From a virus, in the IMG/VR virus record IMGVR_UViG_3300045971_000895, positions 128,001 through 192,000 of that record: a stretch of 64,000 nucleotides of DNA; one strand, given 5' to 3'. The position numbers and the translations under genes were made by a program. The notes beneath the pieces were generated by a model, which did not search any database, was not told where the DNA came from, and was given only the letters and a program-made list of their open reading frames with translations. Each line of letters begins with the position of its first letter. Positions within the stretch are counted from its first letter, which is position 1. Below, piece by piece: positions 14,699 to 62,132 of this stretch.

Positions 14699-15820
14699 AT
14701 GAGCGCCACTGCCGTTCCAGCCAAGGTCCTCAACGACCTCTTCTTCGAGAAGATCGGGTCCACCGAGGGCAAGGACAAGATCGCCGAGTTCGGAGGCACC
14801 TACATCCGGGACCGCCTCCGTGAGGTCTCGTTCGCCCGCAAGATCATCCCGCCCACTCCCGTCCAGCGGAGCGAGCTCCAGCGCTCGGTGAACCACGACA
14901 CGCTCGTCAAGATCGTGGACATCGAGCCGAACTCGAAGGCCACCAGCCTGACCTTCCGCGGTCAGCCGACGGCTCGGTTCATCCGCGCCCCGCGCTTCGA
15001 GATCCCCTTCTTCACCATCTCCTCGGAGAAGTTCGAGAAGACGGAGCAGGAGCTCCTGGCGTACGAGATGCCCATCACCAAGATCATCGAGGAGAACTCG
15101 GTGAAGGACATCCAGGCGATCGAAGACCGCCAGTTCCTGATCTTCGTCGAGGCCTGCATCCAGGCGATGCAGCTCTCCGCCAACGGTGGCACCGCGACCT
15201 CCAACAAGGTCAACGGCGGCACCGCCGTGGTGTCGTCGGTCATCAAGGGCGCCGGCGCCGTCACCGGCAACGCGAACACCTTCACGGTGTACTCGCTCCA
15301 GAAGAACGACTTCGTCAAGCTGAAGCAGCTCCTGCACCGGCGCTTCCTCCGGTCGGAGCGGCTCCTGATGACGGAGCCGGACTACGACACCCTCTCGACC
15401 TGGACCATGACCGAGGTCTGGAACATCGCTGCCGAGACGGCGACCGAGGGCTGGAAGAGCAACACCGTGGTGGGCCTGAAGATCATCCGGACCATCAAGA
15501 CCAACATCCTGCGCGAGGGCAACGTGTACTGCTTCACGGCGCCCGAGTTCTTCGGCCGGTTCTACATCCTGAACCAGACGAAGTTCTACATCGACAAGAT
15601 CGCCAACCTCATCACCTGGCAGAGCTGGGAAGACATCGGGATGGGCTTCGGCAACGTCGCCGCGGTCACCAAGCTCGAGCTCTTCGGTGGTGGCGTGGTC
15701 CCCGGCGCCTCGCCGGACTCCGGCTACGCGGCCGTCCTGCCGATGGACGAGTCCGACCTGAACCCGGTCAACAACCTGGCCGACGCCGGGACGACCTACC
15801 CGCAGGTCGACCAGTTCTAA
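14699..15820 (+). CDS. major capsid protein
   Basis: 373 aa. Its size and position are right for a capsid protein. Followed by the strongest terminator in the window. No internal Cys-rich or low-complexity region. The assignment rests on context plus general HK97-like length and composition. Confidence 0.6.
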   Translation: MSATAVPAKVLNDLFFEKIGSTEGKDKIAEFGGTYIRDRLREVSFARKIIPPTPVQRSELQRSVNHDTLVKIVDIEPNSKATSLTFRGQPTARFIRAPRFEIPFFTISSEKFEKTEQELLAYEMPITKIIEENSVKDIQAIEDRQFLIFVEACIQAMQLSANGGTATSNKVNGGTAVVSSVIKGAGAVTGNANTFTVYSLQKNDFVKLKQLLHRRFLRSERLLMTEPDYDTLSTWTMTEVWNIAAETATEGWKSNTVVGLKIIRTIKTNILREGNVYCFTAPEFFGRFYILNQTKFYIDKIANLITWQSWEDIGMGFGNVAAVTKLELFGGGVVPGASPDSGYAAVLPMDESDLNPVNNLADAGTTYPQVDQF

Positions 15821-36817: not shown

Positions 36818-37069
36818 CTACTTCTCGATGCCAGGGGCCCGCGGCTTGCGCGGCTTGGGGGTCTTCGTGAGGGACCTGACGCGGCCTGCCTGACGCCGGC
36901 CCTTCTCGTCGGTCACCACCTCGAACTCCACCGTGTCGCCCTGCGTCAGGGTCCGGTAGCCCTCCATCTCGATGTTCGAGTGGTGGACGAAGAGATCCTT
37001 GTCATCCCCGTCGGGGACAACGAAGCCGAAGCCCTTGACACTACTGAACCACTTCACCTTGCCATGCAC
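36818..37069 (-). CDS. cold-shock protein (CspA family) with basic C-terminal tail
   Basis: 'HGKVKWFSSVKGFGFVVPDGDDKDLFVHHSNI' matches the RNP1/RNP2 CSD motifs. Probable GTG start. C-terminal tail 'KTPKPRKPRAPGIEK'. Confidence 0.72.
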   Translation of the reverse strand: MHGKVKWFSSVKGFGFVVPDGDDKDLFVHHSNIEMEGYRTLTQGDTVEFEVVTDEKGRRQAGRVRSLTKTPKPRKPRAPGIEK

Positions 37070-42824: not shown

Positions 42825-43777
42825 GTGAGCCCCGCTCGAGTGGCGAGGTCGGCATGGGTCCCGTTCTTGGTGATGTCCTGGATGCGCTCGATGACGAGCT
42901 TCCGGTCCTCGTCGCCAAACTTCTGGCAGAGGAGGAACATCATGTCGAACCAGCCGACGCGGGGGAGCAGGTTGATGAGCTCCACCAGGTCGCGGGTGGA
43001 GAGGGAGTAGCTGGTGGCTCCCTGCCTGGTCTGGTTGGCGATGTTCACCAGCATCTCCAGGCCCTGCTGCTGGATGGGGTCTCCCATCGAGCCCGTCTTC
43101 CCGTAGCCGGTCATCTCCATGAGGATCTCCTTCTCGGCCTCGGGAGGCGGGTAGGGGATGTCGATGCAGGTGAAGCGGCTCCTCAGGTCATCGTTCAGCT
43201 CGTTGGTTCCGCCGTAGACGGTGGGGTTCTGCGTGGCGATGACCCAGAGCTTGCAGCCCTCCCGGAGCTCGAGGCGCGTGGAGAGCTCTGGGATCTCCAG
43301 CTTGCGGCGGAAGTCGGTGAAGCTGTTCACCAGCTTCTGCTGCTGGTTGGGCAGCGAGTTCAGCTCCTCGAGCACGAGCATGGCGAAGCCGCACTCGTTG
43401 GCCACCTTGATGGCGTTGGCGACGGTGCCGAGGATGAAGGGGGTCTCCCCGCTCTTGGCGACGAAGCCTCCCTTGAAGTGCCGCTCCCTCGTCTCTTCCG
43501 AGCAGTCCATGGAGAGGTAGGGGATGCCGAGGGTCTCGGCCATGTACGACGCCAGCAGGGACTTCCCCGTCCCCTTGGGCCCGTTGAGCAGGAGGTTGGG
43601 AGGATCCCAGGTACCCGAACCGGTAGGCACCTGACTCATCTTTGTGAGGAAAGGTATGAGCTCGAAGACATCGACGTACTTCAAGCCCTTCCTCAAGACG
43701 AGAGAGGCGGGTACCATGTACCTGACCTCGACGCCGTTGATGCGGAGGATGCCCTCTCCGACTGCTTCAAGTGTCAT
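42821..43777 (-). CDS. MoxR/CobS-like AAA+ ATPase
   Basis: Walker A 'LLLNGPKGTGKS' and Walker B 'MLVLEELN'. Size and architecture match phage CobS-like proteins. Confidence 0.75.
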   Translation of the reverse strand: MTLEAVGEGILRINGVEVRYMVPASLVLRKGLKYVDVFELIPFLTKMSQVPTGSGTWDPPNLLLNGPKGTGKSLLASYMAETLGIPYLSMDCSEETRERHFKGGFVAKSGETPFILGTVANAIKVANECGFAMLVLEELNSLPNQQQKLVNSFTDFRRKLEIPELSTRLELREGCKLWVIATQNPTVYGGTNELNDDLRSRFTCIDIPYPPPEAEKEILMEMTGYGKTGSMGDPIQQQGLEMLVNIANQTRQGATSYSLSTRDLVELINLLPRVGWFDMMFLLCQKFGDEDRKLVIERIQDITKNGTHADLATRAGLT

Positions 43778-45597: not shown

Positions 45598-48500
45598 ATG
45601 GCCCTTCGCAGGTTCCTGTTCCAGAACCTCGGTGCGGGCTCTGGCTTCTTCGATCAGAACCAGGACTCGGACGAGGTACAGGTAGCGAGGGTCACCATCG
45701 TCGCCGGCGTAGGCGGCGTTGGTCTCGCTCTTGGCCTGACCGACATCTCTGGGGCTCGGGACATCAGCGCCCGGTTCGTCTCGTTCACCACCGGCGTCAC
45801 CGGTGGCGTGGCGATCGACGCCGGCGGCCTGCGCATCACCAACCTGGCGCTCGTTCCCACCGGGCCCAGCGAAGCCGTCTCGATGCAGTTCGTCGTGGAC
45901 GCCATCGCTGGGATGACCGGCGTTGGCGCCACAGGAGCCACAGGCCCTGCTGGCCAGCAGGGACCAACCGGTGCCGCGATCACCGGGGCCACTGGCCCGC
46001 AGGGCTCGCCCGGGCCCACAGGGCAGCAAGGTCTTCAGGGCGTCACTGGAGCAACTGGGCCTGTCGGTCCGCAAGGCCCTACCGGAGCGGCGATCACAGG
46101 GGTCGCTGGGCCGCAAGGGGCAACAGGTGTCACGGGAGCCCGAGGTGCTGACGGCGTCACTGGGGCGACGGGCCCTCAAGGGCCGCAGGGGGTCACGGGA
46201 TTCACCGGTCCCCTTGGTCCTCAAGGCGTCGATGGCGTCACTGGTCCGCAGGGTCCGACTGGAGCTGGCAGCTATCCCGGTGGCACGACGGGGCAGCTGC
46301 AATACTTCAACGCCGGGTCCTTCGGTGGCGCTACCAACATTACTTTTGAGAACGGGTCGCTTGTTCTCAAAGCAGATGGTGTCCACCCAATACTGGTCAT
46401 CAAGAACTCTTCTGGCGTAACCGTTGGTGGATGGGATGCCTCCGCAGGGCATCTATCCACCACCTTCCTAGATCCTGTTGCATCGCTGCGTACAGGCCAT
46501 GATGGCTACTTCGAGCAGGGAGGTTTCTTCTTCGACTCTTCCCTTACGGCGACTACCGGAATAGCTGCTGACGTTCTTGTTCTGGATACGGCAGCTGCGC
46601 TTAGAACCAAGAAGGCTACGACCGCTCTTGAGATCCCCTTGGGGGTTGCGGGGCAGTTCAACGCGCCTACTTGGATGCTCACTAGCGGTAAGGCTAGCGT
46701 TACTGCGGATACTGCCGCAGTGGCCATTGGTGACCGTATCGTGATGTCCCCCACGCTGATTGGGGCCGTCACTCCCGACAACACATGGGACCTTGCGAAG
46801 CCCATGCTTGGGTACGCGCTGTCGAGCAAGGCAGGAGGGTCCAGCGGGGCAATCACTATATGGCTGGCCCAGCAAGCGGGGATACCGTCTCTCAACTACT
46901 CCGGCACGCTTGTCTCAACAAACAACATCACCGCACCAACGTTCCTCGGCAACGTGACGGGTACCGGGCCATCTTCCCTGGGGCCTTTGAGTGTCACTGG
47001 AGCAGCTACCGCAGATCAGCCTACGTTTGGCCCCGAGCTGCTCAGCGCAACAGGCTGGACTTCGGTCGGATGGACTGGCGGGCCTTGGCCTACTGGGTTC
47101 GCACACACCGCCGGCAACACTTCCGTTCTCTCCAACACCTTGGCTGCCGTCATCGGCACCAAGTACCACATCACGTTTGCCGTTACGGGGCGTACGGTCG
47201 GAACGTTCGACTTGCAGTTCGGTGGCCAGACCATCCCACTGCTGTTCTCTTCCACCACGGTCAACCTCGGGGACGCGAACGGCTACGGCAGCGTGGACCC
47301 TACCGCCACGACGACCGGTGGCCTGACGATCACTCCGACAACGGACTTCAACGGGACGATCACCCTCTCGATCAAAGCCATCACGGCCGTCTCTACTCCT
47401 GTGTTCAAGCTCCTCTCCAGCACGTGGGGAGTCCAAGTAGAGGTCCGCGTCAACACGGTAGAGAGCGGCACTAACATCGCAAGCATGTTCATCGGCCAGG
47501 ACTCTGGCTCCTATGCGACTACCGGGTTCAACAATACGTTCCTCGGTAACGCTGCGGGCATGAACCTGACGTCAGGCCATGACAACTGCGGCCAAGGCAA
47601 CCTGGCCCTCAAGGCTCTCACGGTTGGGTTCGGCAACTCGGCCTTTGGGTCTTACGCTCTTCGGCAGATCATCGCGTCCAAGTACAACACGGCGATGGGC
47701 ACCGGGGCTTTGCGGTTGCTCACCTCGGGCTACGGCAACACGGGCGTTGGGTTCAGTGCCCTCTACTCCAACACCACGAGCATCTACAGCTCTGCCCTCG
47801 GCGTAAGTTCCGGACGCTACTTGGTTGATGGCATCACCGAGCTTACTGACTCTTCCTACTCGGTGTTCCTGGGCTACAAGTCGATGTCGTTTGCCCAGGC
47901 ACAGACCAACGAGATCGTCATCGGAGCCTTGGCTCTTGGCAACGGCTCCAACACGGCCACGCTCGGTAACGACAGCGTCACCAAGACCTACCTCAAGGGC
48001 GTGCTCACGAGCTTGGTTGTTGATAGCGCCGCAGCGGTGGCTCATGCCATCAACTCCCCAGCCTACAGCACGGCCGGCGCCAAGCTCCTCTCGATCCGCA
48101 ACAACGGCGTCGAGAAGTTCTACGTCGACAAAGATGGCAACGCCTACTCGAACGGAGTGCTGCTCGGTGCCACGGGCCCAGCTGGAGCGACAGGAGCTCA
48201 GGGCGTTACTGGAGCACAAGGGATCCAAGGTGTCACCGGTGCAACTGGTCCGACTGGTCCACAAGGAGCCACTGGGCCGTTGGGTGCCACTGGCGTTCAA
48301 GGCATCCAGGGAGTCACTGGGTCGACAGGCCCTGCCGGCGCGCAAGGTGCCACGGGTCTTCAAGGCATTCAGGGTGTCACGGGAGCGACCGGGCCTACGG
48401 GCCCGAAGGGCGACACCGGCGCTGCGATCACTGGAGCGCAGGGCGCAACTGGTGTGCAGGGTCCGCAGGGCATCACCGGCGTCACAGGACCGATGGGACC

Positions 48501-51500
48501 TGGGAGTCCCTCCGCTGGCCCTCAGGGCAGCCCAGGCGTCACTGGTGCGACGGGTGCTCAGGGTCCACAAGGAGTAACGGGGGCAACAGGTCCCACTGGG
48601 CCTCAGGGCCCAACTGGCGCCGCCATCACTGGCGCTCAGGGTCTTCCCGGTGTCACCGGTGCTACGGGCACAACCGGAGCGCGAGGCGCGACCGGTGTCG
48701 ATGGTGTCACCGGCGCCACAGGTGTTCGCGGTGCCACTGGTGTGGACGGTGTGACCGGCGCGACGGGTCCTACGGGGGCTCGAGGTGCGACAGGCATCGA
48801 CGGAGTCACCGGGGCTACTGGCCCTCGTGGTGCAACCGGAGTCGATGGAGTCACAGGAGTCACGGGACCAACCGGCGCACGAGGTGCGACTGGCGTTCAA
48901 GGAGTCACTGGGGCTACTGGTCCTCAAGGGGCCACAGGCGTCGACGGCGTTACCGGATCAACGGGACCTCGAGGTGCGACCGGAGTGACTGGTGCGACAG
49001 GTCCTGTCGGTCCTCAAGGGCCTACGGGAGCGGCCATCACCGGCGCCATCGGGCCGCAGGGCCCGACAGGTGTGACCGGTGCTCGCGGCGCTGACGGCGT
49101 CACTGGCGCAACAGGTCCGACAGGGCCACAGGGTGTGCAGGGTCCTACTGGTGCGGCCATCACAGGAGCGCAAGGAATCCCCGGCACGACCGGAGCTACT
49201 GGCACAACTGGTGCGAGAGGCGCGACTGGCGTCGACGGTGTCACTGGTGCCACGGGGCCGACCGGACCGGTCGGTGCTCAGGGCGTGACGGGAGCTACCG
49301 GCCCAACAGGCGCACGGGGAGCGACGGGTGTTGATGGTGTGACGGGCTCGACAGGTCCTCGTGGCGCCACCGGCGTTGACGGAGTGACCGGAGCAACAGG
49401 CCCCACTGGTGCACGCGGGGCGACAGGCGTCGATGGAGTCACTGGGGTCACAGGCCCAACCGGTGCCCGCGGTGCAACGGGTATCACCGGTGCCACTGGT
49501 CCCATCGGCCCGCAGGGTGTGACTGGTGCGACTGGCCCGGTTGGCCCACAGGGGGCGACGGGCGCCACTGGTCCTGTTGGTCCGCAAGGCCCCACTGGTG
49601 CGGCGATCACTGGGGCTCAAGGCATCCAAGGGCCAACGGGTGCTGCGATCACGGGTGCGGTTGGTCCGCAAGGTGTCACCGGCGCTACTGGTGTGACTGG
49701 TGCTCGAGGTGCTGATGGCGTGACTGGTGTCACCGGCCCCGCCGGCGCCAGGGGCGCGACAGGCGTTGATGGTGTCACCGGCGTTACAGGTCCGACCGGA
49801 GCGCAAGGTGCCACTGGGCCTGGTGCGAACCCTGGCGGCATCACCGGCCAGATCCAGTTCAACGAAGGCCCGACCTTCAACGGCGACGTCGGCCTCACCT
49901 ACGACAAGGTGTCGAAGGCTCTCTTCGTCAGCACCATTGACGCTCTCCCCAACAACCCTCTCAGCCTGTTTGGGAGTGCGACGGCCGGAGCGACGAGCGG
50001 CGCCATCATCCTCACGCAGACCCCGGGCCTTACGGTCCCCGGGTCCAGGCTCTTCAGCCTCCGCAACAACAGCGCTGAGAGGTTCTACGTAGACGAAAGC
50101 GGCAGAACCTACGCAGCCGGCATGGAGGTATTCAAAACCAACGACGTGGTGATGAACACCAACCCGTTCGGTGGACGCAAGCTCTACCTCAACAGCATCA
50201 ACAATGCGCTCTTCCGTGCCGAGAGCCGCTGGGCCGTTACTGGGGCTCGGTACCTGACGAGCGACGACAGCCTTCTGTCTGCCATCTCGCAGGTGGAGCT
50301 CGCCACGCTCTTCGATGGCAACTACGAGGCGGTACTCAACATCCCCGCCGGCCAGTACATCATCGTCAACATCAACTTCGCCACCGAGCTCGGCTCCGGT
50401 GGCGTCTACCCCGGGTACCCGTACGGCAACTTCCTCGTCTCGCACTACTACACTGACTACTCTGCCGGGGGCACGGTCAGCGCGTACTCAACCTACGTGC
50501 CCCATGGCGTTGGGTGGCACTCGCAGACGTTCTACGACTACCTCCGAGTCGGCACCACCAACCTGATCCTTCAGGCGCGGAACGACGTCTACGCGATCTC
50601 TCAGCTGGAGTTCAAGTTCTCGGCGCTGCCAGGCACTGCGGCCAAAATCACCCAGATTGACTGGAACCTCGATCGCCCTGGCGGTAACGAGATGCCGCTG
50701 TTGGATAAGTTCAAGGCCAACATCCTGTACTCTCACTTGTCGTTTGAGAGCGGGCTTTCGACGACTGCTGTGATTTCGGTTGCCGGTGAGGGCCGCTTTG
50801 CTGCGCTGTACGGCGTCACTGGGTCGTTGCCGCTGCACGGTCAGGCCGTAGACGGAAGCTCTGCTGTTGGGGTGAGCGTCAACAACACGACTGCGCTCAC
50901 CACGGCTGGTGCGAAGCTCTTGTCTGTCCGCAACAACTACGTCGAGAAGTTCTACGTCGACAAGGATGGCAACTTCGGAGGCCCGAACGGCGTCTTCCGC
51001 GTTACGGAGACGCGCACTCTCCCGATCACTGTCGGGGACTATGTTTCGCTCGGCTCCGTTCAGGTCCCAAGCGGCGCACACCAGCTGATTGTTCAGCTTA
51101 CCGTGTCGAGCTCCGGGTTCTCCGTCGCGAAGCTCTACTTCGTCACTGCTGCCTACGGCCAGACGGGGAACGTTTGGAAGACTGTCGATCCCGTCGACGA
51201 CACGGGCCCGTTCTCGAACGACTTCGCGTTGGAGGTCAACACAGTCAACGCCTCACTCTTCCTGCGGGTGCGCCGTACTTCGGGAGCCGTTGCTGGAGTC
51301 GTCACGGCAGTCATGACGATCGGCGACTCCAACGTCGCTAGTTGGTTTACCGACTCCTCGACCGGGGGCACTGGGTCGGTGGCGACGGGCTACTTCGCCG
51401 GCGTTGCCTCCAAGATCCTGCGGAGCGGTCTTGCGGACTCAGGTTCGGCGGTCGCTGCGCTCATCGACACCACGGCGACGTTCACCACAGCTGGTGCGAA

Positions 51501-54500
51501 GCTCCTCTCCATCAGGAACGCGGGCATCGAGAAGGCCTACGTCGACAAGGACGGCAACTACTGGTCAAACGGCCAACAGATCAGCGTCACTGGCCCCACT
51601 GGCCCTCAGGGCGCCACCGGGGTCAACGGCGTCACTGGAGCAACTGGCCCAACAGGGCCTCAAGGCATCCAAGGCGTCACGGGAGTCACCGGTCCAACTG
51701 GTGCGCGTGGTGCTACCGGAGTTGATGGCGTCACCGGAGTGACTGGGCCTACCGGTGCACGAGGCGCCACTGGTGTTGATGGTGTCACGGGAGCAACCGG
51801 GCCAACAGGTGCTCGCGGCGCAACTGGTGTCACCGGAGCAACTGGCCCTGTTGGGCCGCAAGGAGTGACGGGCGCTACTGGCCCCGTCGGACCGCAGGGA
51901 CCTACCGGGGCAGCCATCACTGGAGCACAGGGCATCCAAGGTCCTACCGGAGCCGCCATCACTGGTGCTGTCGGGCCCCAAGGGCCTACCGGCGTCACGG
52001 GTGCGCGCGGTGCGGATGGTGTGACCGGGGCCACTGGGCCGACAGGTCCGGTTGGCGCACAAGGTGCGACAGGGTGGACAGGCCCCACCGGGGCGAGGGG
52101 TGCCACCGGTGTGGACGGCGTCACCGGCGTCACGGGCCCGACTGGCGCCCGCGGCGCCACCGGGGTCACCGGTGCCCAAGGCATCCAGGGCATCCAAGGC
52201 GTCACCGGGTCGACCGGCCCGCAGGGCGGGCAGGGCCTCCAGGGCGTCACTGGGGCCACGGGACCGACCGGACCCCAGGGCGCGCAAGGGGTGACAGGCG
52301 CAACGGGCCCCACGGGCCCGCAGGGCGCTCAGGGAGTGACCGGCTGGACCGGCCCGACGGGCGCCAGGGGCGCCACGGGCGTGGACGGTGTCACAGGTGT
52401 GACCGGACCCACCGGGGCCCGTGGTGCGACCGGCGTGACGGGTGCGCAGGGCATCCAAGGGAACCCCGGTGTCACCGGTGCGACAGGTCCTCAAGGCGCT
52501 CAGGGACCGACTGGTGCAGCCATCACTGGGCCGCAGGGTGTCACAGGAGCCACAGGGCCTGTCGGTTCACAGGGCCCGACAGGAGCTCTCGGCCCCACGG
52601 GAGCAGGCAGCTTCCCTGGAGGCGCGAACACTCAGGTCCAGTTCAACAACTCCGGCGCGTTCGGTGGATCTGCGAGCCTGTTCTGGAACGGCACCTCTCT
52701 CGTCGTAGGCACCTCTGCGGCAGGCTCCAGCCAGCTCTCAAGCGCCAACGCCTTCCAAGAGTACTGGTCTACGGAAGTGTACCCTCGCGTGTGGCTCTCC
52801 CGCGATGCAGGGTCGAGCGGCGTGGCCGGTCTGGCGTTCGGCATTGGCTCCGTTGCCCCGGACAGCAAGATCCATCGAGCCACCAACGGTGCTGGCCTCG
52901 CCTTGATGGGCGGCAACGTCGGCATCGGCACGACGACCCCTGGGTACAAGCTCGATGTGGCGGGTAACGCCAACATCAGCAACGGATCTTACTACTACGC
53001 TGGAGGCTTGCCGCTTTCGGCCGGCGCTGGTGCAGAAAACTACCTGTTCACCAGAACCAACGGCCTGCTGATCCGCAACGCAGGTGAGACCGCGACCCTT
53101 GGTGTCATCGACAACAGCGGTAATGCGTCGTTCATAGGGACGCTCTCCACAGGAGGCAACGCAGTCATTCATGCCGGTAACATCGGCACCCAGAGCGTCG
53201 CTAACGCAAACACTGTCGACTCGGTCCATTCGTCATCGCTCCGTCGTCTGGACTCGGACGGCTTCTTCTCTACCGGGACCTACCCAGGCAACCTGAACGG
53301 CTCTGACTACCAGTACACGTTCCAGTCTGCGCCACAGTCGATGATCGGGGATGCCTTCGCCTGGAACCCTCCCACGTCCTACGAGATATGGAATGGGTCT
53401 GCGTGGGTGTCCGGTGGCGCCGTACCAGTCGAGGTGTTCCGGGGAGACCCCGCCCAGAACTGGGGCAACGTATCCATCCCCTACGGGACGCAGAAGGTCC
53501 GCTTCACGTGGAACAACTTCGAGTACTTCTACTGGAACGCTCTCCAGATGGCCCACTCCACCAATGGGCACACCTTTGTCGTGAAGGTGCAGCAGAGCGA
53601 CGCAGCGGGAACGACGTTCACTGACACGGTCACCTCGGCCGCCATCGGCTCTTGGCCCGGGTATACGATCCTCCCTCACACGGGCGTTTCGCACCCCTCC
53701 AACACACTTCACGCTCGGATCGAGATCACCCCGACGTGGAATGGTACCTACCCTTCCAACACCATCGGCATCGGGCACATCGGCCTGCTGGGCGCGTATG
53801 GCCCGATGAGGAAGCTCTACACTTGGGACGCAGCTCGAAACATCTATCTCCAATCAAGCCTTGTCATCGACCCCACCGGCACCAGCGGCATCTACATCAA
53901 CTCCGCTAGCATCCGGCGGTCAGGGAACTCGTACCTCGATATCTCTGCCCCAGACGCTGGAGGACGCCTTAGACTTCGTGGCGCTTCAGGCGTTGGCATA
54001 TACAACGGCACAAACGACTACGATGTAATCCACGCGGGCAACATCGCGTCGCAGACCGTCGCCAGTGCCACCAACGTGACGTCAGTCGCTGACACTACGA
54101 CGACCAGTGGATTCTTACTCTTCCACCCCGGGAGCGGGACCTACCAGCCCAGACTGAGCGCGGCGCTATACTACGACGCTACTACTGGGTCTCTGTTCTC
54201 TACGAAGTTCTTCGGGAACGCTTCCGGGCTTACGGGTTCGGCGGGCAGTCTAACTGCCGGCGCGACCACGAATGTAACCGCTGGTGGGTCCGTCACCACT
54301 ACCACCATAAGCGCCCTGGTCGCGGGTGGAGCCTTAGACCCGTACGGCGCAGTCGCCATCGCGGCACCCAACGACGCTACCAGCCACTCCTACATGTCGT
54401 TCACTAGGAACGCGCAGGTAGGTATTGGGTTTGGTATCACGAGCTCAAATGAGTACTGGGTTGGGCCAGCCACGGCGGGCTTCGCCGGGGTGATGAGTGG

Positions 54501-55209
54501 TACGCCCTGGCTGCGTCTGAACGGCACTACTGCCCAGATCAACGGCAATAACATCATTCACGCCGGAAACATCGCCTCTCAGACCGCGGGTACCGCTACC
54601 AACGCCGTCAACGTTGGGGTCACCGACGACACGACGACCAACGCTACTCACTACATAACGTTCGTGAACACGGCCTCGGGCAACCGTGCGATCGAGGTCA
54701 GCAGCAGCAAGCTGACGTACAACCCGTCGACCGGTGGTCTCACCACCGCCGGCAACATCACCGGCAGCGACATCTATGCCATCCGTGCGAGCAATACGGC
54801 TTCAGGCGTCATCTACTTCGGCAACAGCGGCGCCCAGTACCTCTTCTACAACGGTGCTGGCGCATACAGCCTGACAAGCGGAACTCTGACCGTTGGTGGC
54901 ATCGTCTACGCCACCGACTTCTCGGCATCTTCCGACTACAGGCTGAAGGACAACATCGCCACCATCCCCAACGCGCTGCGCCGTGTTCTTGGGATGCGCG
55001 GAGTGAACTTCACACGCGCTGACGACGAGAGTAACCGTTTGCACATGGGCGTCATCGCGCAAGAGATGGAAGAGATCGCACCCGAGGTCGTCAGCACCGA
55101 CGAGCATGGTATGAAGTCCGTCAGCTACACAGGGCTGGTGGGCATCCTGATCGAAGCGGTCAAGGAACTTCAAACCAAGGTCGAGGCGCTCCAAGCGCAG
55201 AAGGTGTGA
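45598..55209 (+). CDS. giant collagen-like tail fibre (3203 aa) with C-terminal peptidase S74 intramolecular-chaperone domain
   Basis: Three Gly-X-Y segments (about 110, 550 and 340 aa) separated by beta-rich modules. The C-terminus '[55 protein letters not shown]...[17 protein letters not shown]' matches the auto-cleaving chaperone domain of endosialidase-type fibres. Confidence 0.82.
48170..49830 (+). repeat. collagen-like GXY coding repeat (9-nt periodicity, 'GgtGcgACnGGn' units)
   Basis: Hundreds of near-identical '[13 protein letters not shown]' triplets. Shorter copies at 45920..46270 and 51590..52610. Confidence 0.85.
51590..52610 (+). repeat. collagen-like GXY coding repeat (third segment)
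   Basis: Same unit as above. Prone to recombination and length variation. Confidence 0.85.
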
Positions 55210-55210
55210 C

Positions 55211-56338
55211 ATGAGCGGCAAGCGCGAGTTCCACATGGACTTGAACTTGACCAACCAGTGCAACCTTCGCTGCTCCTACTGCGTTGAGGCTGGGCTGTTC
55301 ACCTCCAAGACCTGCGAGGAGATGCTCCCTCGCTTCTACGCTTGGATCGACCGGTTCATCGGCTCCCAGTACTTCAAGGAGCGCTACGACGAGCTCCACA
55401 TCGCACTGTGGGGCGGAGAGCCGACGCTCGAGTGGCGAACCATCATCGAGTTGGTGCGGCGCTACCTCGGAGACAACCGGGTCGCGTTCTTCCTGTACAC
55501 GAACGGCTACAACCACCCCAAGGGTCTTCAAGACCTTCTGGTGGACGCCACCAACAAGCACCGAGAGCAGCCCGACAAGTACCCAGCCTTCCCCATCCAG
55601 ATCTCGTACGACGGCATGCCCCTACAAGACATGTTCCGCAAGACGGTCGGAGGCAAGCCGTCTTCGGAGCGCGTCATCGAGACCATCCGGTGGGCGCAGG
55701 CCAAGGGATTGGACTTCAGCCTCAAGGCCACGATCACCGTGGCGTCATTGAAGCACCTCTACGCAGCCTGGCATGACATCAACATCCTTGGCCGAGGCGA
55801 GCTCACTTACTTCCCCACACTCGACTACTACAACGCGGTGATCAGCGACGATACGGCTGTCCTCGACACCAGCATCGAGGAGATGAAGACCTGCATGAAG
55901 ATGATCGCCGCCGACACGCTCAGGGCTCGAGCGGCAGGGAAGCAGGTGGCGCACTTCAGGTGGTTCGACTCTGCGAAGGCCAGCTGCTCGGCGGGACAGA
56001 ACCTGTTCAGCGTGGACCTCGATGGTGTGGTGTACGCCTGTCACACCGCCCCCTACTCCGAGAAGAAGGCCGACCATGTCGTTGGGGCTCTGGAGGACGA
56101 CTTCTCGATCTTCGACGTATCTGCTGAGAAGCATCGCGGCCTCCGTCCGCACCAGTGCTCTGGCTGCGAGGCGGTCTTCTGCGTGGTGTGCAGCGTGTCG
56201 AAGTATCGGATGTCGGACAAGGACAACTACCTCGACCGGTGGATGGACTACACCAACGACGATGAGTCCTGCCGCATCTACCGAGAGATGGGCAAAGTCA
56301 CTCGTGCGTTCCTTCAGCTCAAGGAGGAGATCAAGTGA
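55211..56338 (+). CDS. radical SAM enzyme with C-terminal SPASM/twitch-like Cys cluster (peptide/protein-modifying maturase)
   Basis: 'CNLRCSYC' is CxxxCxxC 18 residues from the N-terminus. The C-terminal cluster is 'YACH...QCSGCEAVFCVVCSV...ESC'. The start is 2 nt after the fibre stop. Confidence 0.8.
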   Translation: MSGKREFHMDLNLTNQCNLRCSYCVEAGLFTSKTCEEMLPRFYAWIDRFIGSQYFKERYDELHIALWGGEPTLEWRTIIELVRRYLGDNRVAFFLYTNGYNHPKGLQDLLVDATNKHREQPDKYPAFPIQISYDGMPLQDMFRKTVGGKPSSERVIETIRWAQAKGLDFSLKATITVASLKHLYAAWHDINILGRGELTYFPTLDYYNAVISDDTAVLDTSIEEMKTCMKMIAADTLRARAAGKQVAHFRWFDSAKASCSAGQNLFSVDLDGVVYACHTAPYSEKKADHVVGALEDDFSIFDVSAEKHRGLRPHQCSGCEAVFCVVCSVSKYRMSDKDNYLDRWMDYTNDDESCRIYREMGKVTRAFLQLKEEIK

Positions 56339-56997
56339 GCTTCATGGGGAACACGTACTACCCACTGGCCGATCGCATCAGCTACGGAGACGTGGAGTCT
56401 GCGCTTGCCGACCTCGAGGCTCTGGACGCTCCAGAGAGCCACACTGACTTGCTGGCCCTGCACAGGTGGTTCCAGGTCAGCACGGGGAAGCTGCGCTGCT
56501 ACACCAAGCTGAAGCGCCTCGAGGATGCTCGGGCCATCGCGTCTCGTATGATCTCTGTGAGCCCAGAGAACATGGCCGCCATGGTGGGCGACTACCCGGT
56601 GGCGGGCTTCTCTGCTGCCCTGATTCAGTTCATGCGTTTGGTAGATCAGGGGAACTTCATGACCAACCCTGCGCTACAGCCTTACCGAGACTTCTTGGAT
56701 CTCAACCTTGCCGTAGACGGGAATCGCCACGGTGCTCGCGTGTACGCTCTGTACAAGCTCGGAGTCGATGCTGCTTGGAACATGCGCCAGGACGAGCCCG
56801 CGATGGGGCCCACGCTTGCCCTGCTGGACGCCTTGACCCCAGACAACATCAGCCTTCTTCAGGTTGGGCACATGAGCCTACTGTTCTTTGCGGTCCACAT
56901 GCTGTCGGTACTGACCGGCCATCTACCTCCAGAGTCCGAGGTGGTTGCTCGAGTCAAGGCCCTAACGGAGACCGTGCTCGCGCTCCCGCGCGGGTAA
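56335..56997 (+). CDS. all-helical partner protein of rSAM cassette (220 aa)
   Basis: GTG/ATG start overlapping the rSAM stop (GTGA). No motif recognised. Helical repeat-like composition. Confidence 0.5.
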   Translation: MSFMGNTYYPLADRISYGDVESALADLEALDAPESHTDLLALHRWFQVSTGKLRCYTKLKRLEDARAIASRMISVSPENMAAMVGDYPVAGFSAALIQFMRLVDQGNFMTNPALQPYRDFLDLNLAVDGNRHGARVYALYKLGVDAAWNMRQDEPAMGPTLALLDALTPDNISLLQVGHMSLLFFAVHMLSVLTGHLPPESEVVARVKALTETVLALPRG

Positions 56998-57003
56998 CTG
57001 ACC

Positions 57004-57678
57004 ATGGCGATCATCCCATCGTTGCCGCCCATCGTCCTCAGAGGCTCGACCAGCATCGCCACCAATGCGGTGAGCGTGAACATCTACGGCACGCCAACTA
57101 ACCTGACCCTCACCGCGACCATCGTTCGTACGCTCTTCGCCAAGCTGACTGGGACGATCAATCTCTTGGATGGAAGGGGTAAGTGCTACTCCAACTGCCT
57201 GTGCAACGGCGATTGCGGCTGCGACGCCAACTGCGGCTGCGACGCCAACCTGTGCGGCTGCGACGCGTTCTGCCCGGCTCCTGATGTCCCACTGCGTATG
57301 GCGGATGGGACCGAGAAGCTCGCTGGCGACATCGTGGTCGGAGACCTGGTGGTGGCTTGGGATGAGCACGCAGGAGAGTTCTCTACTCGCAAGGTCATCC
57401 ACGCATCACTCCACTCCAACCTCCGAATGCTCCTCGAGCTCAACAACGGGAAGTCCGGAGAGTTCGCAGCCAACCACAGGTTCCTCACGCAGAAGGGCCG
57501 TTGGGTCGAGCTTCAAGATCTCCATGTTGGTGAGAGGCTCTCGACGGGGCTGCTGGTCACCAAGACGGCGCTCACCTGCATCGGCCCCGTCGTGTCCATC
57601 ACCGTCGAGGACCTGCACACCTACGTCACCCTCGGCGTCATCTCTCACAACGTCAAGAACTGTCCGCCAGGAGTCTAG
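57004..57678 (+). CDS. Cys-rich (CxC-repeat) peptide fused to Hint/intein-like (BIL-type) autoprocessing domain
   Basis: Residues ~60-90 are 'CYSNCLCNGDCGCDANCGCDANLCGCDAFC'. Hint block A is 'CPAPDVPLRMADGTEKLAGDIVVGDLVV'. Block B is 'ANHRFLTQKGRWVELQDLHVGERL' (compare 'TANHRFLT' in the DnaB mini-intein). The C-terminal block is 'VEDLHTYVTLGVISHN', followed by 'VKNCPPGV' with no Cys/Ser/Thr at +1. Confidence 0.75.
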   Translation: MAIIPSLPPIVLRGSTSIATNAVSVNIYGTPTNLTLTATIVRTLFAKLTGTINLLDGRGKCYSNCLCNGDCGCDANCGCDANLCGCDAFCPAPDVPLRMADGTEKLAGDIVVGDLVVAWDEHAGEFSTRKVIHASLHSNLRMLLELNNGKSGEFAANHRFLTQKGRWVELQDLHVGERLSTGLLVTKTALTCIGPVVSITVEDLHTYVTLGVISHNVKNCPPGV

Positions 57679-57975: not shown

Positions 57976-58127
57976 ACAACACCAACGATACCCAGAAGCC
58001 CGAAGTCACCGGCGGCACCTCCACGAAGACCGGCTGGGCCGGCGTGCCTGCCACCACCAAGTACATCGTGATCGGCGTGGGGGCATTCCTCCTCCTCGCC
58101 GCGCTGATGGCGCTGAAGTTCCGGTAG
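57972..58127 (+). CDS. tiny single-pass membrane protein (51 aa), holin-like candidate
   Basis: 'MNNTNDTQKPEVTGGTSTKTGWAGVPATTKYIVIGVGAFLLLAALMALKFR'. ATGA overlap with the upstream gene. Confidence 0.35.
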   Translation: MNNTNDTQKPEVTGGTSTKTGWAGVPATTKYIVIGVGAFLLLAALMALKFR

Positions 58128-58151
58128 CCACCAAGCCTGATAGGTAAGAAA

Positions 58152-58189
58152 GAAGAGGGTCCCCAGGCAATCACCCGGGGACCCTCTTC
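58152..58189. terminator. bidirectional GC hairpin terminator preceded by 'TGATAGGTAAGAAA'
   Basis: agagggtcccc...ggggaccctct between convergent genes. Confidence 0.6.
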
Positions 58190-58218
58190 ACGCGAACGAG
58201 TCCGCTCTCGCGGCTCGT

Positions 58219-58773
58219 CTAGTTCATCGCCACCATCAACACCTTGGCCTGCTTCCGGTATCTCTCGATCCGGGTGCTGTACACAAGCCTGAGCTCGGTG
58301 TCCGCGGTGTTGTAGAACGAGTACCCCAGGCTCTCTGGGTGGCGGTCGAGTACGTCACGAAGGATCTTCGCTGCGATGCGCAGGTTGTATCCATCGTCGC
58401 TACGCAGCCTCTTGGCGTCGAGCTCGAGCTCGTCCACCCAGAATGAGTTCACCTGTGCGAGGCCATAGTCACAGGTACGGCGGCCACTGGCGTTATAGCA
58501 GCTCTTGGCGCCGGTCTTGAAGTGACTCTCTTGGCGCACGATGGCACCGAACAGAGCCACGTCGATCTTGAACTCGTTGGCCACCTCTTCGACCAGACGA
58601 GCGATGCGCTCAGCTTCGGGTGCGCTGAGGTGAGGGTTTGACGTCTTCACGAAGGTGAGCAGCTTCGGTGTGGGCAGCGGTGCTGGTAGAGCCGGCGGCA
58701 GCTGGGTGTCACTCGTCTTCAGCGGCGAGATGCACGCCGTGAACAGAGCAGCAGACAGAAGTAGTCGTCTCAC
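58219..58773 (-). CDS. lytic transglycosylase (SLT domain) lipoprotein
   Basis: 'QESHFKTGAKS...DYGLAQVN' SLT catalytic-Glu motif. Signal peptide plus lipobox-like 'ALFTAC'. GTG start after AGGAGG. Confidence 0.72.
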   Translation of the reverse strand: MRRLLLSAALFTACISPLKTSDTQLPPALPAPLPTPKLLTFVKTSNPHLSAPEAERIARLVEEVANEFKIDVALFGAIVRQESHFKTGAKSCYNASGRRTCDYGLAQVNSFWVDELELDAKRLRSDDGYNLRIAAKILRDVLDRHPESLGYSFYNTADTELRLVYSTRIERYRKQAKVLMVAMN

Positions 58774-58867
58774 TCGAGCCTCCTTTCAGAGGTTGAGTTC
58801 TTACCTTACGGTGAGTGATGGTGAGTGCACAGATTGCAGTTGCGTACCATGTGCGTGGTACTTGAAG

Positions 58868-59262
58868 TGGACCTGGAGGGAGTCGAACCCTCGTCCGGAA
58901 AGCCTTGCTTCAAGGCACTACGAGCGTAGCCCTGTAGACCTGGGCAGGTTGCAGCTGTTGCATCGACCTCTGTCCGCGGCGCCTCCCTCGATGCCAGGAG
59001 AGTGGACCCATTTCCTTCACATCCCACAACCGCGGTGTCCCTCGTGTGGTTGCGCCTATCCAGCTACCCGAGAGGCACTCTCGCTGGTAGACGGCTGAGC
59101 TCTCGTGGTCTCAGCAACATGGTGCCGCTAGGCTGCTGCGGCGGCCATGTTGATCATGGGCTCGTTGGCACATGAACGTGGTCTGCTTGGTAACGGGGCC
59201 TGCTGACCAACCCCGGCTCGCTCCTTGATCTGGGTACCCTCCGTCGAAACCGGTTCAGGCCC
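58868..59262 (-). ncRNA. ssrA: tmRNA (ssrA), one-piece, about 395 nt
   Basis: On the minus strand the 5' end is 'GGGCCTGAACCGGTTTCGACGGAGGG' (compare E. coli 'GGGGCUGAUUCUGGAUUCGACGGG'). The 3' end is 'GGACGAGGGTTCGACTCCCTCCAGGTCCA'. Acceptor stem GGGCCUG/CAGGUCC has a G3-U wobble. Candidate tag ORF 'GCCAACGAGCCC...GCCTAG' encodes ANEPMINMAAAAA*. Confidence 0.65.
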
Positions 59263-59451
59263 GTGAAGCCCTGAGCCAGCCCCAAGGGGCCTTGAACCTG
59301 TAGGTCGTTCGACTCGCTGGTAGGCCGCAGTCGATGAGTATGTTCACGCCTACAGAGCAAGGGCCCCTGGCACCGGCCCAGGGATGAAGCATCCTACACG
59401 ACTAGGCGGATGGGGGGTCCTCTTGCTCCGCCTCTTGCGTGGTACCCGACC

Positions 59452-60054
59452 CTACTGGGTCTGCTGTGGCTGCTGCTCGGCCGGCGCGGGGATCTGCTCA
59501 GCCGGAGGCATGTGCCCCGCCGCTTGGAGCTTCTCGGCCATCGACTGCGTGAGGGGCCTCTGCGAAGGCGGCAGAGGCCTCTGCCCGGGCTGGCCGGAGG
59601 TGCGGGGGTGCCGCCCTCGGTAACCCGCTTGAACCTGCTGGGGCGTCCTCGGGGGAGGCCCCTGGACGGCCTGCGGAGCCTTCGGCTGCGGCGGCTGGGA
59701 CGCGGCCACCTCGCTGAAGTGCTTGCTCCGCATGTCGTCTCCCATCTTCCTCGTCTTGTACCGGAAGATGCCCTTCACCACGTCGAGGTTCTCGGAGAGA
59801 ACCTTGACCGCGATGTCGGAGAGCACGGCCAGCGTGCCGAAGAACCGCGCCTGGGCGTTGTTCTTGGCAGCCGCACTCGTGAGCCAGCCGAAGACCAGCG
59901 TCTTCGACTTCTCGATCTCTTCCGGCGACAACACCTGCACCAGCGATTCCACCGTGCTTGACTCCACCAAGCTCGGTGCGGCGACCTCCACTGGCTTCTT
60001 CTCGACCACCCGTGCTGCCCCCGCCGCCCTCTTCGTCCGCTTCTTGGTCGCCAT
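59452..60054 (-). CDS. hypothetical protein with Pro/Gln-rich C-terminus (~200 aa)
   Basis: ORF. Probable start 'MATKKRTKRAAG'. Confidence 0.4.
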   Translation of the reverse strand: MATKKRTKRAAGAARVVEKKPVEVAAPSLVESSTVESLVQVLSPEEIEKSKTLVFGWLTSAAAKNNAQARFFGTLAVLSDIAVKVLSENLDVVKGIFRYKTRKMGDDMRSKHFSEVAASQPPQPKAPQAVQGPPPRTPQQVQAGYRGRHPRTSGQPGQRPLPPSQRPLTQSMAEKLQAAGHMPPAEQIPAPAEQQPQQTQ

Positions 60055-60137
60055 CGGTCTGTGTCCCCACTTTGTGTGCGTGACGGCTGACAATCAGCCG
60101 CACAACACCTTATCCCCCACGATGGAATCTTTTGGAT

Positions 60138-60176
60138 GAGGGCTAAAACAAGAGTCCCGATGCTCTGGGACTCTTG
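60138..60176 (-). terminator. rho-independent terminator (minus strand)
   Basis: caagagtccc...gggactcttg followed on the minus strand by TTTTAG. Confidence 0.6.
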
Positions 60177-60210
60177 CCGACGGTTGCATCGCTGCGCGGG
60201 AGGAGCCGCG

Positions 60211-60684
60211 CTACGCCTGCGCCATCTTCTGCGTGGCCTTCTCCGCCTCCAGCTGGAACTGGTTGGAGTCGGCCGCCTTCTTCACGTAGCTTGCGAGCTC
60301 CCACGGCGCGATGCCGAGCTCAATCACCGACTCGAAGGTGATCTCGCGGTAGGTATCCTTACCCAAACCGAGATCTTCGAGCGCAGTCTCGAACGCCGAA
60401 GACATGACGGCGTGCGGCCTCCACTGGGCTCCGAAGATGAACTCGTCTTCGCCGTTGAGGCCGAGCACGACGATCCTCGCGTGCACCAAGGACTCCGCGC
60501 CGTCGATGCAGCGCCGGTTGTCCAGCCCGATAGAGCACTTGAAGATCTCCGCCGGGGGCTTCTTCATTGAGAGCAGCAGGGTGAGGAGAGGCCGAAGGCC
60601 GCGAAGTGCGACTCTCGGCAGGGACTCCTGGTAGTTGCCGATGAAGTGGTCACACTCCTTCACGATCTCTTCGTTCTTCGTCAT
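60211..60684 (-). CDS. hypothetical protein (157 aa)
   Basis: Start 'MTKNEEIVKECDHF' with GGAGGTGG RBS. Confidence 0.45.
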   Translation of the reverse strand: MTKNEEIVKECDHFIGNYQESLPRVALRGLRPLLTLLLSMKKPPAEIFKCSIGLDNRRCIDGAESLVHARIVVLGLNGEDEFIFGAQWRPHAVMSSAFETALEDLGLGKDTYREITFESVIELGIAPWELASYVKKAADSNQFQLEAEKATQKMAQA

Positions 60685-61163
60685 GACCACCTCCGAGTCT
60701 TCGGGTTGAGCACCAAAGTCGAGTCCCCTCTGCTTCTGGTGATGGTCTGCCCCTTCACCTCTCGCTTCATACGACGCGAGCGGATGACGGCGCGAATGAC
60801 CCACACCAACACCATCCCCAACAGCACGTACCCCGTCATCCGAACCTCCAGGCTATGGTTGTCTCTGCTCTCTTCTTATGCCTCCACGCTCCGACCTTTG
60901 GGAGGCACTCGCACGATTGGTACGATGAAACATTACCCTCAAACGTGCACGGTGCAAGGGGTTTGCACGATACCCCCTCCCACCCGTCAAGCAACGAATG
61001 TACAGGGCTGTCCTGCAACTCCGGGCAACCACGAGAGGTATGGAGATTAGCCGCCTCCCGGCGGCCTACTCGAAGCGCCTCTCAAGTTCTCATCTGGAAG
61101 CGAGGTGCAACTAACACCTCTCCCAGATGGGAACTGAGCGGACTCTAGAGAGCATCACGGTCA

Positions 61164-62132
61164 GTGCAACAAGCAGTGAACTTCACCGCTACATCCTTAT
61201 GCCCAAATCGCACTCGTACTTGCTACCACATCCACCGCACTCTTCATGCTCCCCACCGCAGACTCAGGAGAGTAGCGTGGAGGTACGTGACCACCTACCC
61301 AGTACCTCCAGGCACTTCCAGGCGCGTTCCGCGTTACGTGACGTTGCTTCTTTGTTGGTTGGGGGTCGCGATATGTGGAGGGCTGGATGGTTGGCTCGAC
61401 ATGGCCTTCCACTACAACTTCACACCAACACCGATCTACCTAATTCCCATCTCGGTGGCAGCGTGGCTTGGAGGAATCCCTCTTGGCCTTCTCGTCGCTG
61501 CTCCTGCCTTGGCACTCGAGGTGTGGTTCAGTGTCGACGCAGTCAAGGTGCACCACTCCAACGGTGTAGTCATCACAGAGGCACTCTCGCTACTCATCGC
61601 CGCAGAGATGCTGACGGGTGTGCTCATCATCTCGAGACTGCGCGGCTACGTTCGCAAGTACCACCACTTCGCTTCGGTGGACGAGCTCACGGAGTGCCTC
61701 AACGCCAGAGCATTCAAGCACGAGTGTGAGATCTCCATCGAGCGCCTGAAGCGCCACAGCAACACGCACCTCTCAGTGATGTACATCGACGTGGATGACT
61801 TCAAGCTCGTGAACGACGAGAAGGGTCACAAGCATGGCGATGAAGCGCTCAAGATACTCGGCCAAGCACTTCGAGACTCGGTGCGCGTGGTGGATGTGGT
61901 TGGAAGAGTGGGAGGAGATGAGTTCGCCATTCTCTTGCCAGAGGCTAGTGAGAGCGATCTCCCATGTATCATCGAGCGCATCAAAGCTGCACTCGTGCAG
62001 ATGCAGTTCCCCACCACCATCAGCATCGGCTACGTGACCTACCCGCCCGGTGTGCCGAAGGATCTCGACGAGGTCTTCCACACGGCCGACCGGCGCATGT
62101 ACGAAGCCAAGAAGGCACGCAAGAAGAGGTAA
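61164..62132 (+). CDS. membrane-anchored GGDEF diguanylate cyclase
   Basis: 'RVGGDEFAILLP' active-site motif and 'MYIDVDDFKLVNDEKGHKHGD'. Hydrophobic N-terminal segments. The true start is probably downstream, around 61338..61400. A hairpin follows at 62137..62160. Confidence 0.68.
   Translation: MQQAVNFTATSLCPNRTRTCYHIHRTLHAPHRRLRRVAWRYVTTYPVPPGTSRRVPRYVTLLLCWLGVAICGGLDGWLDMAFHYNFTPTPIYLIPISVAAWLGGIPLGLLVAAPALALEVWFSVDAVKVHHSNGVVITEALSLLIAAEMLTGVLIISRLRGYVRKYHHFASVDELTECLNARAFKHECEISIERLKRHSNTHLSVMYIDVDDFKLVNDEKGHKHGDEALKILGQALRDSVRVVDVVGRVGGDEFAILLPEASESDLPCIIERIKAALVQMQFPTTISIGYVTYPPGVPKDLDEVFHTADRRMYEAKKARKKR

Follow-up and report, generated by a model that had tools for sequence, protein, structure and literature searches.

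We analysed a window of viral DNA of 64,000 nucleotides (nt), positions 128,001 to 192,000 of the IMG/VR record IMGVR_UViG_3300045971_000895, in which an ssrA-like gene lies between phage protein genes. With a probability of about 80%, we read this gene as the complete, one-piece transfer-messenger RNA (tmRNA) of a large tailed phage, which carries a tag close to that of its likely host clade and would add ribosome-rescue capacity during infection. As a phage tmRNA it is a new example, solid but ordinary, of a known kind of thing. All coordinates given below are positions in the window, where the tmRNA is on the minus strand. Rfam cmscan returned a match to the tmRNA family RF00023 at 58865-59262 (-), which scored 100.2 bits against a gathering threshold of 47 (E 6.1e-38) and covered positions 1-374 of the 374-position model without truncation. 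Within this match the gene extends exactly from G1 to the discriminator A395, bearing out a preliminary description of this DNA in which an apparently complete tmRNA gene was placed at 58868-59262. The testable defining features of RF00023 are present in the gene, apart from the region of pseudoknots (PK) 2 to 4, in which two PK2 hairpins have support. The gene and its parts are as follows:

58868..59262, minus strand: tmRNA (ssrA-like) gene from G1 to discriminator A395, the whole gene being 395 nt; the Rfam match extends to 58865
59244..59262, minus strand: 5' half of the tRNA-like domain (tmRNA 1-19), read from the sequence, with acceptor strand GGGCCUG and the D-loop-like AACCGGUUUCGA
59180..59215, minus strand: pseudoknot 1 (tmRNA 48-83), with stem 1 CGGGG/CCCCG and stem 2 GGUCAGC/GCAGACC, the latter with one A·A mismatch
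59128..59169, minus strand: tag frame ANEPMINMAAAAA and UAG stop (tmRNA 94-135), in the Rfam register
59116..59151, minus strand: helix 5 (tmRNA 112-147), AACAUGG/CCAUGUU with inner GCCGC/GCGGC and the stop codon in the apical loop
59053..59115, minus strand: PK2 region (tmRNA 148-210), with hairpin A GCUGAG/CUCAGC and hairpin B CGUCUACCAGC/GCUGGAUAGGCG
58927..59052, minus strand: PK3-PK4 region (tmRNA 211-336), about 20-30 nt longer than in relatives
58868..58926, minus strand: 3' strand of helix 2, T-arm, acceptor strand CAGGUCC and discriminator A (tmRNA 337-395)

To these sequences we applied an alignment of 15 tmRNAs, comprising that of the window, that of a sister viral locus (L120), five genes of a bacterial clade whose tags begin with ANEPMINM, and eight Anaeromyxobacter-type genes. 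Both halves of the tRNA-like domain, the G3-U pair and the 7-nt T-loop, all noted in the preliminary description, can be read directly from the sequence. The acceptor stem GGGCCUG/CAGGUCC is 7 bp long with all 7 pairs standard and is followed by the discriminator A, and the T-arm GAGGG-UUCGACU-CCCUC has a 5-bp stem and a 7-nt loop. The alanine-identity pair, here G3:U392 and corresponding to G3:U70, shows no variation among the 15 aligned tmRNAs; nor do the GG and the UUCGAC of the D-loop-like GG...UUCGAC segment, save for one substitution in L120. CCA is not encoded, and the sequence continues as ...ACUU. The distance of about 395 nt that had been given for the separation of the two halves is the length of the whole gene; the halves are about 340 nt apart. 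Long-range helix 2 is present as well, with segments 2a and 2d 100% paired, 2c 87% paired and 9 pairs changed on both sides among the relatives.

The structure was then judged by covariation. Seventy base pairs were assigned by hand on the window sequence and counted across the alignment, in which 85.4% of the cells were standard-paired, compared with 38-45% when partners were slid by 1-3 columns. Changes on both sides were seen for 33 of the 70 pairs, and the observed values were reached by none of 500 shuffles. The acceptor stem, T-stem, helix 2a, helix 2d and PK1 stem 1 were 100% paired across the alignment. At acceptor positions 4-6 the window differs on both sides from all 14 relatives; in total, five of the 12 acceptor and T-stem pairs (three acceptor, two T-stem) have both partners replaced in comparison with all relatives while every pair still forms, a pattern that speaks for a functional RNA. 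One pair of PK1 stem 1 covaries, being AU, UA or GC, and PK1 stem 2 is 86% paired, with one position at which 13 of the 15 sequences, among them that of the window, have an unpaired A·A or A·C. The two parts of helix 5, verified in the window and also predicted by RNAalifold, are 70% and 57% paired in the alignment, in which tag lengths differ. In the PK2-region hairpins all pairs are standard in the window, 71-73% are paired across the 15 tmRNAs, and the pairs covary, with 8 pairs of hairpin B changed on both sides. The PK3-PK4 region has 23-34% identity to relatives; two CCGCGG palindromes are among the candidate stems picked out in it by hand. PK2-4 are dispensable or replaceable without loss of tagging in the E. 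coli tmRNA. The aligned sequences indicate that the tRNA-like domain, helix 2, PK1, the resume region and the tag frame are intact and have been kept so by compensatory changes.

It could still be argued that the gene is a non-functional captured copy, or merely provides homology by which recombination or integration into the host ssrA can proceed, since its Rfam score is 100 bits against 122-146 bits in the bacterial relatives, its PK3-4 region is expanded with a nested fold no better than shuffles, and ARAGORN does not call it. We consider this very unlikely. Five tRNA-like-domain pairs are changed on both sides without one being broken; helices 2a and 2d and PK1 stem 1 are fully paired; the tag peptide is conserved through synonymous codon changes; the tmRNA has been kept at the same locus while flanking proteins diverged to 40-86% identity (see below); and its 3' end, the usual site of an attachment (att) core, is only about 70% identical to host genes (20 of 28 positions). 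As to ARAGORN, it gave no correct tmRNA call at default settings or with thresholds relaxed to 50%; all that it returned were spurious calls, permuted and placed on the wrong strand. The closest bacterial tmRNA relatives are also missed or mis-framed by this program, so the miss is due to the program's own limits and does not count against the gene.

The resume codon GCC is located at tmRNA 94-96, 10 nt past PK1, and opens the frame GCC AAC GAG CCC AUG AUC AAC AUG GCC GCC GCA GCA GCC UAG, that is, ANEPMINMAAAAA*. The preliminary description had proposed an in-frame tag open reading frame (ORF) that starts with Ala-Asn and ends in poly-Ala before a TAG stop, and the Rfam register arrives at the same resume codon; ARAGORN also gives the same tag register for L120 and Anaeromyxobacter. 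The prefix ANEPM is common to all 15 aligned tmRNAs. In typical Anaeromyxobacter/Anaeromyxobacteraceae genomes, retrieved with a PK1-derived pattern (L057-L065 are typical), the tmRNA tag is ANEPMALAA. Tags of the window type were found in one contig of a metagenome-assembled genome (L066) and in six metagenome contigs (L068-L073), as ANEPMINMSAAAA, ANEPMINMTAAAA and ANEPMINMQLAAA, so that the tags of this clade have the form ANEPMINM(S/T)AAAA or ANEPMINMQLAAA. The neighbours of these clade tmRNAs are cellular genes (H+-PPase, MacB/FtsX, T2SS-F, HAD, histidine kinase, RibD_C, CMD/cupin), and their tRNA-like domains match ordinary Anaeromyxobacter genes.

Compared with the clade, the window tag differs in one residue, at position 9 (A, not S, T or Q), or in two relative to the ANEPMINMQLAAA form. 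The Ala codons of the tag vary among the relatives at third positions only, suggesting selection on the tag peptide. Because clade tmRNAs in chromosomal contexts encode it, the poly-Ala ending is native to the bacterial clade. The preliminary description had called the poly-Ala tag atypical; it is indeed unusual against the textbook ...ALAA ending, but it is not specific to the phage. On this comparison of sequences, the phage tag proves to be a one-residue variant of the bacterial clade tag ANEPMINM[S/T]AAAA, and the odd poly-Ala ending is best taken as coming from the host clade and not as a viral invention. The exact DNA of the tag had zero matches in the IMG/VR scan.

We then examined whether the gene belongs to the phage. 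The window carries phage genes for a gpA-type large terminase (TerL), a head protease, a major head protein and a fibre. These, and the genes and elements closest to the tmRNA, are:

4151-5965: gpA-type large terminase
9261-10979: head-protease-like protein
14699-15820: major head protein
45598-55209, plus strand: 3203-residue collagen-repeat fibre with an endosialidase-chaperone (Peptidase_S74) domain at its C-terminus and at least 10 collagen repeat blocks
55211-56338, plus strand: radical SAM protein, following the fibre
57004-57678, plus strand: HINT/intein-like domain protein; the stretch 55211-57678 also holds the radical SAM protein and a 220-residue protein
58152..58189, minus strand: terminator-like hairpin, a 17-bp stem followed by UUUCUU, at the end of the minus-strand block that comprises the small genes, the tmRNA and the SLT gene
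58219..58773, minus strand: lytic transglycosylase (SLT domain, Pfam 1.7e-8), co-oriented with the tmRNA and 92 nt after it
58844..58861, minus strand: 3' trailer hairpin GUACCACGCACAUGGUAC, 6 nt past the discriminator, kept in L120 with one loop change
59452..60054, minus strand: co-oriented upstream gene of 200 residues (gene call on the Logan contig), 58% identical in L120, with no Pfam match
61401-62132, plus strand: GGDEF (diguanylate cyclase) protein, on the opposite strand within the small-gene block and 80% identical in L120

On the 5' side of the tmRNA, at least 14.5 kb with about 33 packed small genes extend to the window-equivalent position 73.8 kb; all but three are on the same strand, and only one, the GGDEF protein, has a Pfam match. 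The structural genes lie on the 3' side. The compact phage-style genes noted in the preliminary description are thus found on one flank and the structural module on the other. Exact-protein look-ups placed the window on two overlapping contigs of SRR35489142 (34,964 bp and 109,071 bp), with the break falling in the collagen repeat. The longer contig has its start near window position 50,808, so contiguous sequence extends to window-equivalent position 159.9 kb or thereabouts, and the contiguous phage-type sequence amounts to at least about 160 kb.

An IMG/VR search with the SLT protein led to two relatives, L120 and L121, in which this protein is 86% and 76% identical, respectively. L120 represents positions 47-60 kb of the 153,172-bp IMG/VR contig IMGVR_UViG_3300045747_000694. 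Its tmRNA (L120:5542-5910, 105 bits, ARAGORN tag ANEPMFAQQLAAA) is, like that of the window, located after the homologous 200-residue gene and directly upstream of the SLT gene. Eleven flanking proteins and the fibre C-terminus, from both sides of the window tmRNA, occur in the same order in L120 with 40-86% identity, including the 200-residue, 157-residue, 52-residue, GGDEF, SLT, 97-residue, HINT, 220-residue and radical SAM proteins. L121 has at its end only the 3' part of a tmRNA, and its SLT gene is located about 1.2 kb further on. These comparisons indicate that the position of the tmRNA is conserved in related viral genomes. A search for related loci with the radical SAM protein gave no relatives, and megablast of window positions 40000-64000 against the phage collection gave no match.

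With phage DNA on both flanks and the locus kept in the 153-kb viral contig, the view of the preliminary description that the gene is phage-encoded, and is not a host ssrA serving as the bacterial attachment site (attB), is upheld. No Phage_integrase match was present among 38 window ORFs compared with Pfam, none is on record for the Logan-contig genes, and the 3' 22-mer of the tmRNA has no second copy in the window at up to 3 mismatches, in line with the absence of an adjacent integrase or attachment repeat remarked on earlier. It is true that tmRNA genes are common integration sites, and that the 3' end of the window tmRNA faces the phage structural module, the side that an ssrA-integrated element would occupy. 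Such an arrangement is seen in L072, where a tyrosine-integrase ORF (L072:404-2395) starts 6 nt past the 3' end of a bacterial-clade tmRNA (L072:32-398, tag ANEPMINMTAAAA), a classical ssrA integration site that stands in contrast to the window. That the window gene belongs to a bacterium and not to a virus, being a chromosomal ssrA that borders an integrated prophage, is nevertheless extremely improbable: the synteny with L120, the lack of an integrase in the scanned ORFs and a 3' end that is not repeated in the window lead us to reject it. Moreover, the 5' side does not resemble a chromosome, consisting of small, densely arranged genes over 14.5 kb or more, almost all of them on one strand and with a single Pfam match among them; the flanking genes on both sides have homologues around the tmRNA of the 153-kb viral contig; and the acceptor and T stems differ from those of every bacterial relative found.

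The phage tmRNA shares its architecture with the bacterial Anaeromyxobacteraceae-type tmRNAs (L066, L069-L072; L057-L065), namely G3:U70, helix 2, PK1, a resume codon 10 nt past PK1, the ANEPM prefix, a stop codon in helix 5 and the absence of an encoded CCA. It differs from them in being phage-borne, in its longer PK3-4 region and in its stems, which are GGGCCUG/CAGGUCC and GAGGG/CCCUC in the window, whereas those of the bacterial genes are GGGGGCG/CGCCUCC and CCGGG/CCCGG or CGGGG/CCCCG. The tRNA-like domain of L120, unlike that of the window, is host-type, its T-arm and acceptor being identical to bacterial genes at 28 of 28 positions. The identity of the window tmRNA to its closest bacterial relatives (L071/L072) and to L120 varies by segment:

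Overall: L071/L072 61%, L120 53%
Before the resume codon: L071/L072 100%, L120 55%
Tag codons 6-13 and stop: L071/L072 85-88%, L120 48%
PK2 hairpin A: L071/L072 95%, L120 100%
T-arm and acceptor 3' strand: L071/L072 71%, L120 71%

The resume region is identical to those of L071 and L072 at 9 of 9 positions, and for the pre-resume and tag stretch as a whole the identity to these two is 88-100%. Outside the block formed by the pre-resume segment, the tag and PK2 hairpin A, identity to the bacterial clade is about 20-85%. With L120, in which the tag is ANEPMFAQQLAAA and only 53% of the whole tmRNA is identical, the window shares PK2 hairpin A (22 of 22 positions) and a G-C pair in PK1 stem 1. This patchwork would fit an exchange of segments between phage and host tmRNAs. 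One possible but doubtful extension is that the phage tmRNA is a mosaic that stays matched to the host because it recombines with the host ssrA in infected cells, through gene conversion. If this were true, the recoded, phage-specific tRNA-like domain might evade a host factor that targets the host tmRNA, or might favour particular partners, and the tags of phage tmRNAs would be a readable record of host range.

As to function, we propose a ribosome-rescue role that would use host factors throughout. The tmRNA would be transcribed together with the minus-strand block of small genes, trimmed by host RNase P and 3' nucleases and completed by the host CCA-adding enzyme, after which the host alanyl-tRNA synthetase would charge it with alanine via G3:U70 and the discriminator A. 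Host SmpB and EF-Tu would deliver it to stalled ribosomes, which would resume on GCC, add the host-like degron and terminate at UAG. The benefit would be that more ribosomes can be rescued once host transcription, that of ssrA included, is off, host mRNA is degraded and many truncated mRNAs appear, or when host nucleases cut mRNAs or tRNAs; ribosomes would stay free for phage messages, and tagged fragments would still go to host proteases. The same rescue role has been proposed for the tmRNAs of huge phages (PMC7162821). No smpB gene was found in the 74 kb examined (tblastn best E 1.9, with an E. coli SmpB query that may be inexact).

Several points weigh against the proposed rescue role of a complete phage tmRNA. 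The likely hosts, soil bacteria of the Anaeromyxobacteraceae-like Myxococcota, are named from tmRNA similarity only, and the benefit to the phage is one that we infer. PK1 stem 2 of the window tmRNA contains an A·A mismatch. The fold of PK1-PK4, singled out for a check in the preliminary description, was supported for PK1 and the two PK2-region hairpins but not for PK3-PK4, which aligns poorly to the Rfam model, with low posterior probabilities and non-standard pairs, and whose nested fold does not outperform those of shuffled sequences (z +1.56). A scan around the tmRNA gene turned up no sigma-70-like promoter. Finally, the integrase and smpB searches reached no further than the window and the next 10 kb, and either gene could occur in the other 86 kb or so of the source contig.

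The tmRNA might instead act as an antagonist or modifier of host trans-translation, either as a decoy for SmpB or ribosomes or through a tag that alters the fate of the tagged product, for example by slowing its degradation by ClpXP. A decoy or tag-altering role has been suggested for other phages, and counteraction of host tagging has been speculated for the tmRNA of phage Lacusarx (PMC5648845); in the window the tag differs at position 9 from the closest bacterial tags (A against S, T or Q) and the stems of the tRNA-like domain are recoded. Yet the phage RNA has an intact tag frame that shares its ANEPMINM prefix and final AAAA with the bacterial clade, its Ala codons differing only synonymously, and its resume region matches L071/L072 throughout. 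It follows from the shared prefix and ending of the tag that the C-terminal degron is unchanged; since the resume region is unchanged too, a decoy or tag-altering role is less likely here, and we regard it as improbable.

The rescue-type phage tmRNA presented here would clearly exemplify the fixation of a tmRNA in a large-phage lineage of the Myxococcota, and its tag points to the probable host group of an uncultured phage. The Ala/Ser difference at tag position 9 would provide a natural barcode by which proteomics could separate phage-driven from host-driven tagging. The combination of a host-matched tag with a recoded tRNA-like domain departs from the usual picture.

Full-length tmRNAs with a tag frame have been reported in other large tailed phages, including the mycobacteriophages Bxz1, Catera and Wildcat (PMC1475703), the Sphingobium phage Lacusarx (PMC5648845) and huge phages (PMC7162821). 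We found no paper on tmRNAs in Anaeromyxobacter phages in the literature. The reported phage tmRNAs are usually in or next to a tRNA cluster, whereas that of the window stands alone between protein genes. We also found a full-length tmRNA, without annotation in the GenBank record, in Myxococcus phage Mx1, which infects another member of the Myxococcota (OR576727.2:46646-47023, L001:6001-6378; Rfam 117.7 bits). It lies within a tRNA cluster, with about 30 tRNAs around it, and its ARAGORN tag, VNTNVFGSQMMAAA, ends in AAA. A coding sequence for 41 residues annotated as 'Hef-like endonuclease' (46919-47044) over the 3' part of the Mx1 tmRNA is probably spurious.

Mx1 and the window share 24 of 26 aligned T-arm/acceptor columns, but their tag regions are unrelated (34% identity). 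The T-arm and acceptor 28-mer shared with Mx1 occurs in 46 IMG/VR loci with unrelated tags and no homologous flanking proteins; the likeness therefore says nothing on kinship, and the idea of a specific myxophage tRNA-like domain was dropped, the 28-mer being common in unrelated viral tmRNAs. Similarly, an IMG/VR scan with the 5' pattern GGGCCTGANNNGGTTTCGACGG returned 51 loci, none of which resembled the window tmRNA outside the tRNA-like domain. Many of them look permuted, with the 3' piece upstream of the 5' pattern.

ARAGORN is the tool used in the phage studies PMC1475703 and PMC7162821. Among loci L076-L118, 15 of the 16 viral loci lacking an ARAGORN call were scanned with Rfam, and 13 of these 15 were positive, 12 for RF00023 and one for a permuted-tmRNA family. 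As ARAGORN misses the window gene and other Rfam-positive viral tmRNAs, phage surveys based on this program probably under-count tmRNAs. Several of the RF00023 matches in the ARAGORN-negative viral loci are unusually long (416-560 nt).

Around the tmRNA gene, the terminator-like hairpin is weak evidence, because shuffles average 1.2 such sites; it is the sole one in 58100-60300. The 3' trailer hairpin may have a role in processing. About 88 nt directly upstream of the window tmRNA (59263-59350, -) are missing from L120 (compared with L120:5500-5541). A conserved block upstream of the tmRNA, with the window sequence TAGGATGCTTCATCCCTGGGCCGG, lies about 110-135 nt before the gene there, as against about 20-45 nt in L120, and may be a candidate promoter or processing element. 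Further upstream, the 197-residue ORF at 60211-60804 has no exact protein record, its called start being different, and the GGDEF protein is a conserved phage-borne cyclic di-GMP enzyme.

On the other side of the tmRNA, the ORF at 45598-55209 is presumably a very long tail fibre, within which the public short-read assembly breaks. The radical SAM, 220-residue and HINT proteins that follow it are kept in L120 with 40-60% identity, and a role in fibre modification or maturation is a guess. Elsewhere in the window, a MoxR-like AAA_5 ATPase gene (42821-43777, -) overlaps by 4 nt that of a CoxE-like VWA-domain protein (41097-42824), the pair being on the strand opposite to the structural genes; an RNase HII is encoded at 3092-3703 (-; Pfam 2.4e-27), and a cold-shock-domain protein at 36818-37069 (-; precomputed Pfam match on the Logan gene call).

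We found no credible tRNA in the 64-kb window or the next 10 kb. The only tRNA call of ARAGORN, tRNA-Arg(tct) at 15243-15334 (-), is a false positive at which Rfam finds none; its 92 nt would fold with a D-stem of just 3 bp, a mismatched acceptor and an extra arm that is long and unpaired, a T-Psi-C loop is lacking, and it lies antisense inside the major-head-protein ORF.

Among the other viral loci, a match of 80 nt (L077:6216-6295) that takes in the ends of the tmRNA model scored 47.2 bits, exactly at the threshold, and looks like a 'mini tmRNA' that consists of the tRNA-like domain without a tag frame. A similar mini form has been reported for mycobacteriophage DS6A (PMC11915505). Furthermore, three large IMG/VR contigs with long tmRNAs contain Pistol ribozymes (49.6-54.5 bits) and a fourth contains a RAGATH-34 RNA (70.3 bits); these loci are L081:1907-1980, L091:1632-1705, L110:7874-7947 and L117:10331-10435, and all four contigs come from sample 3300045988.

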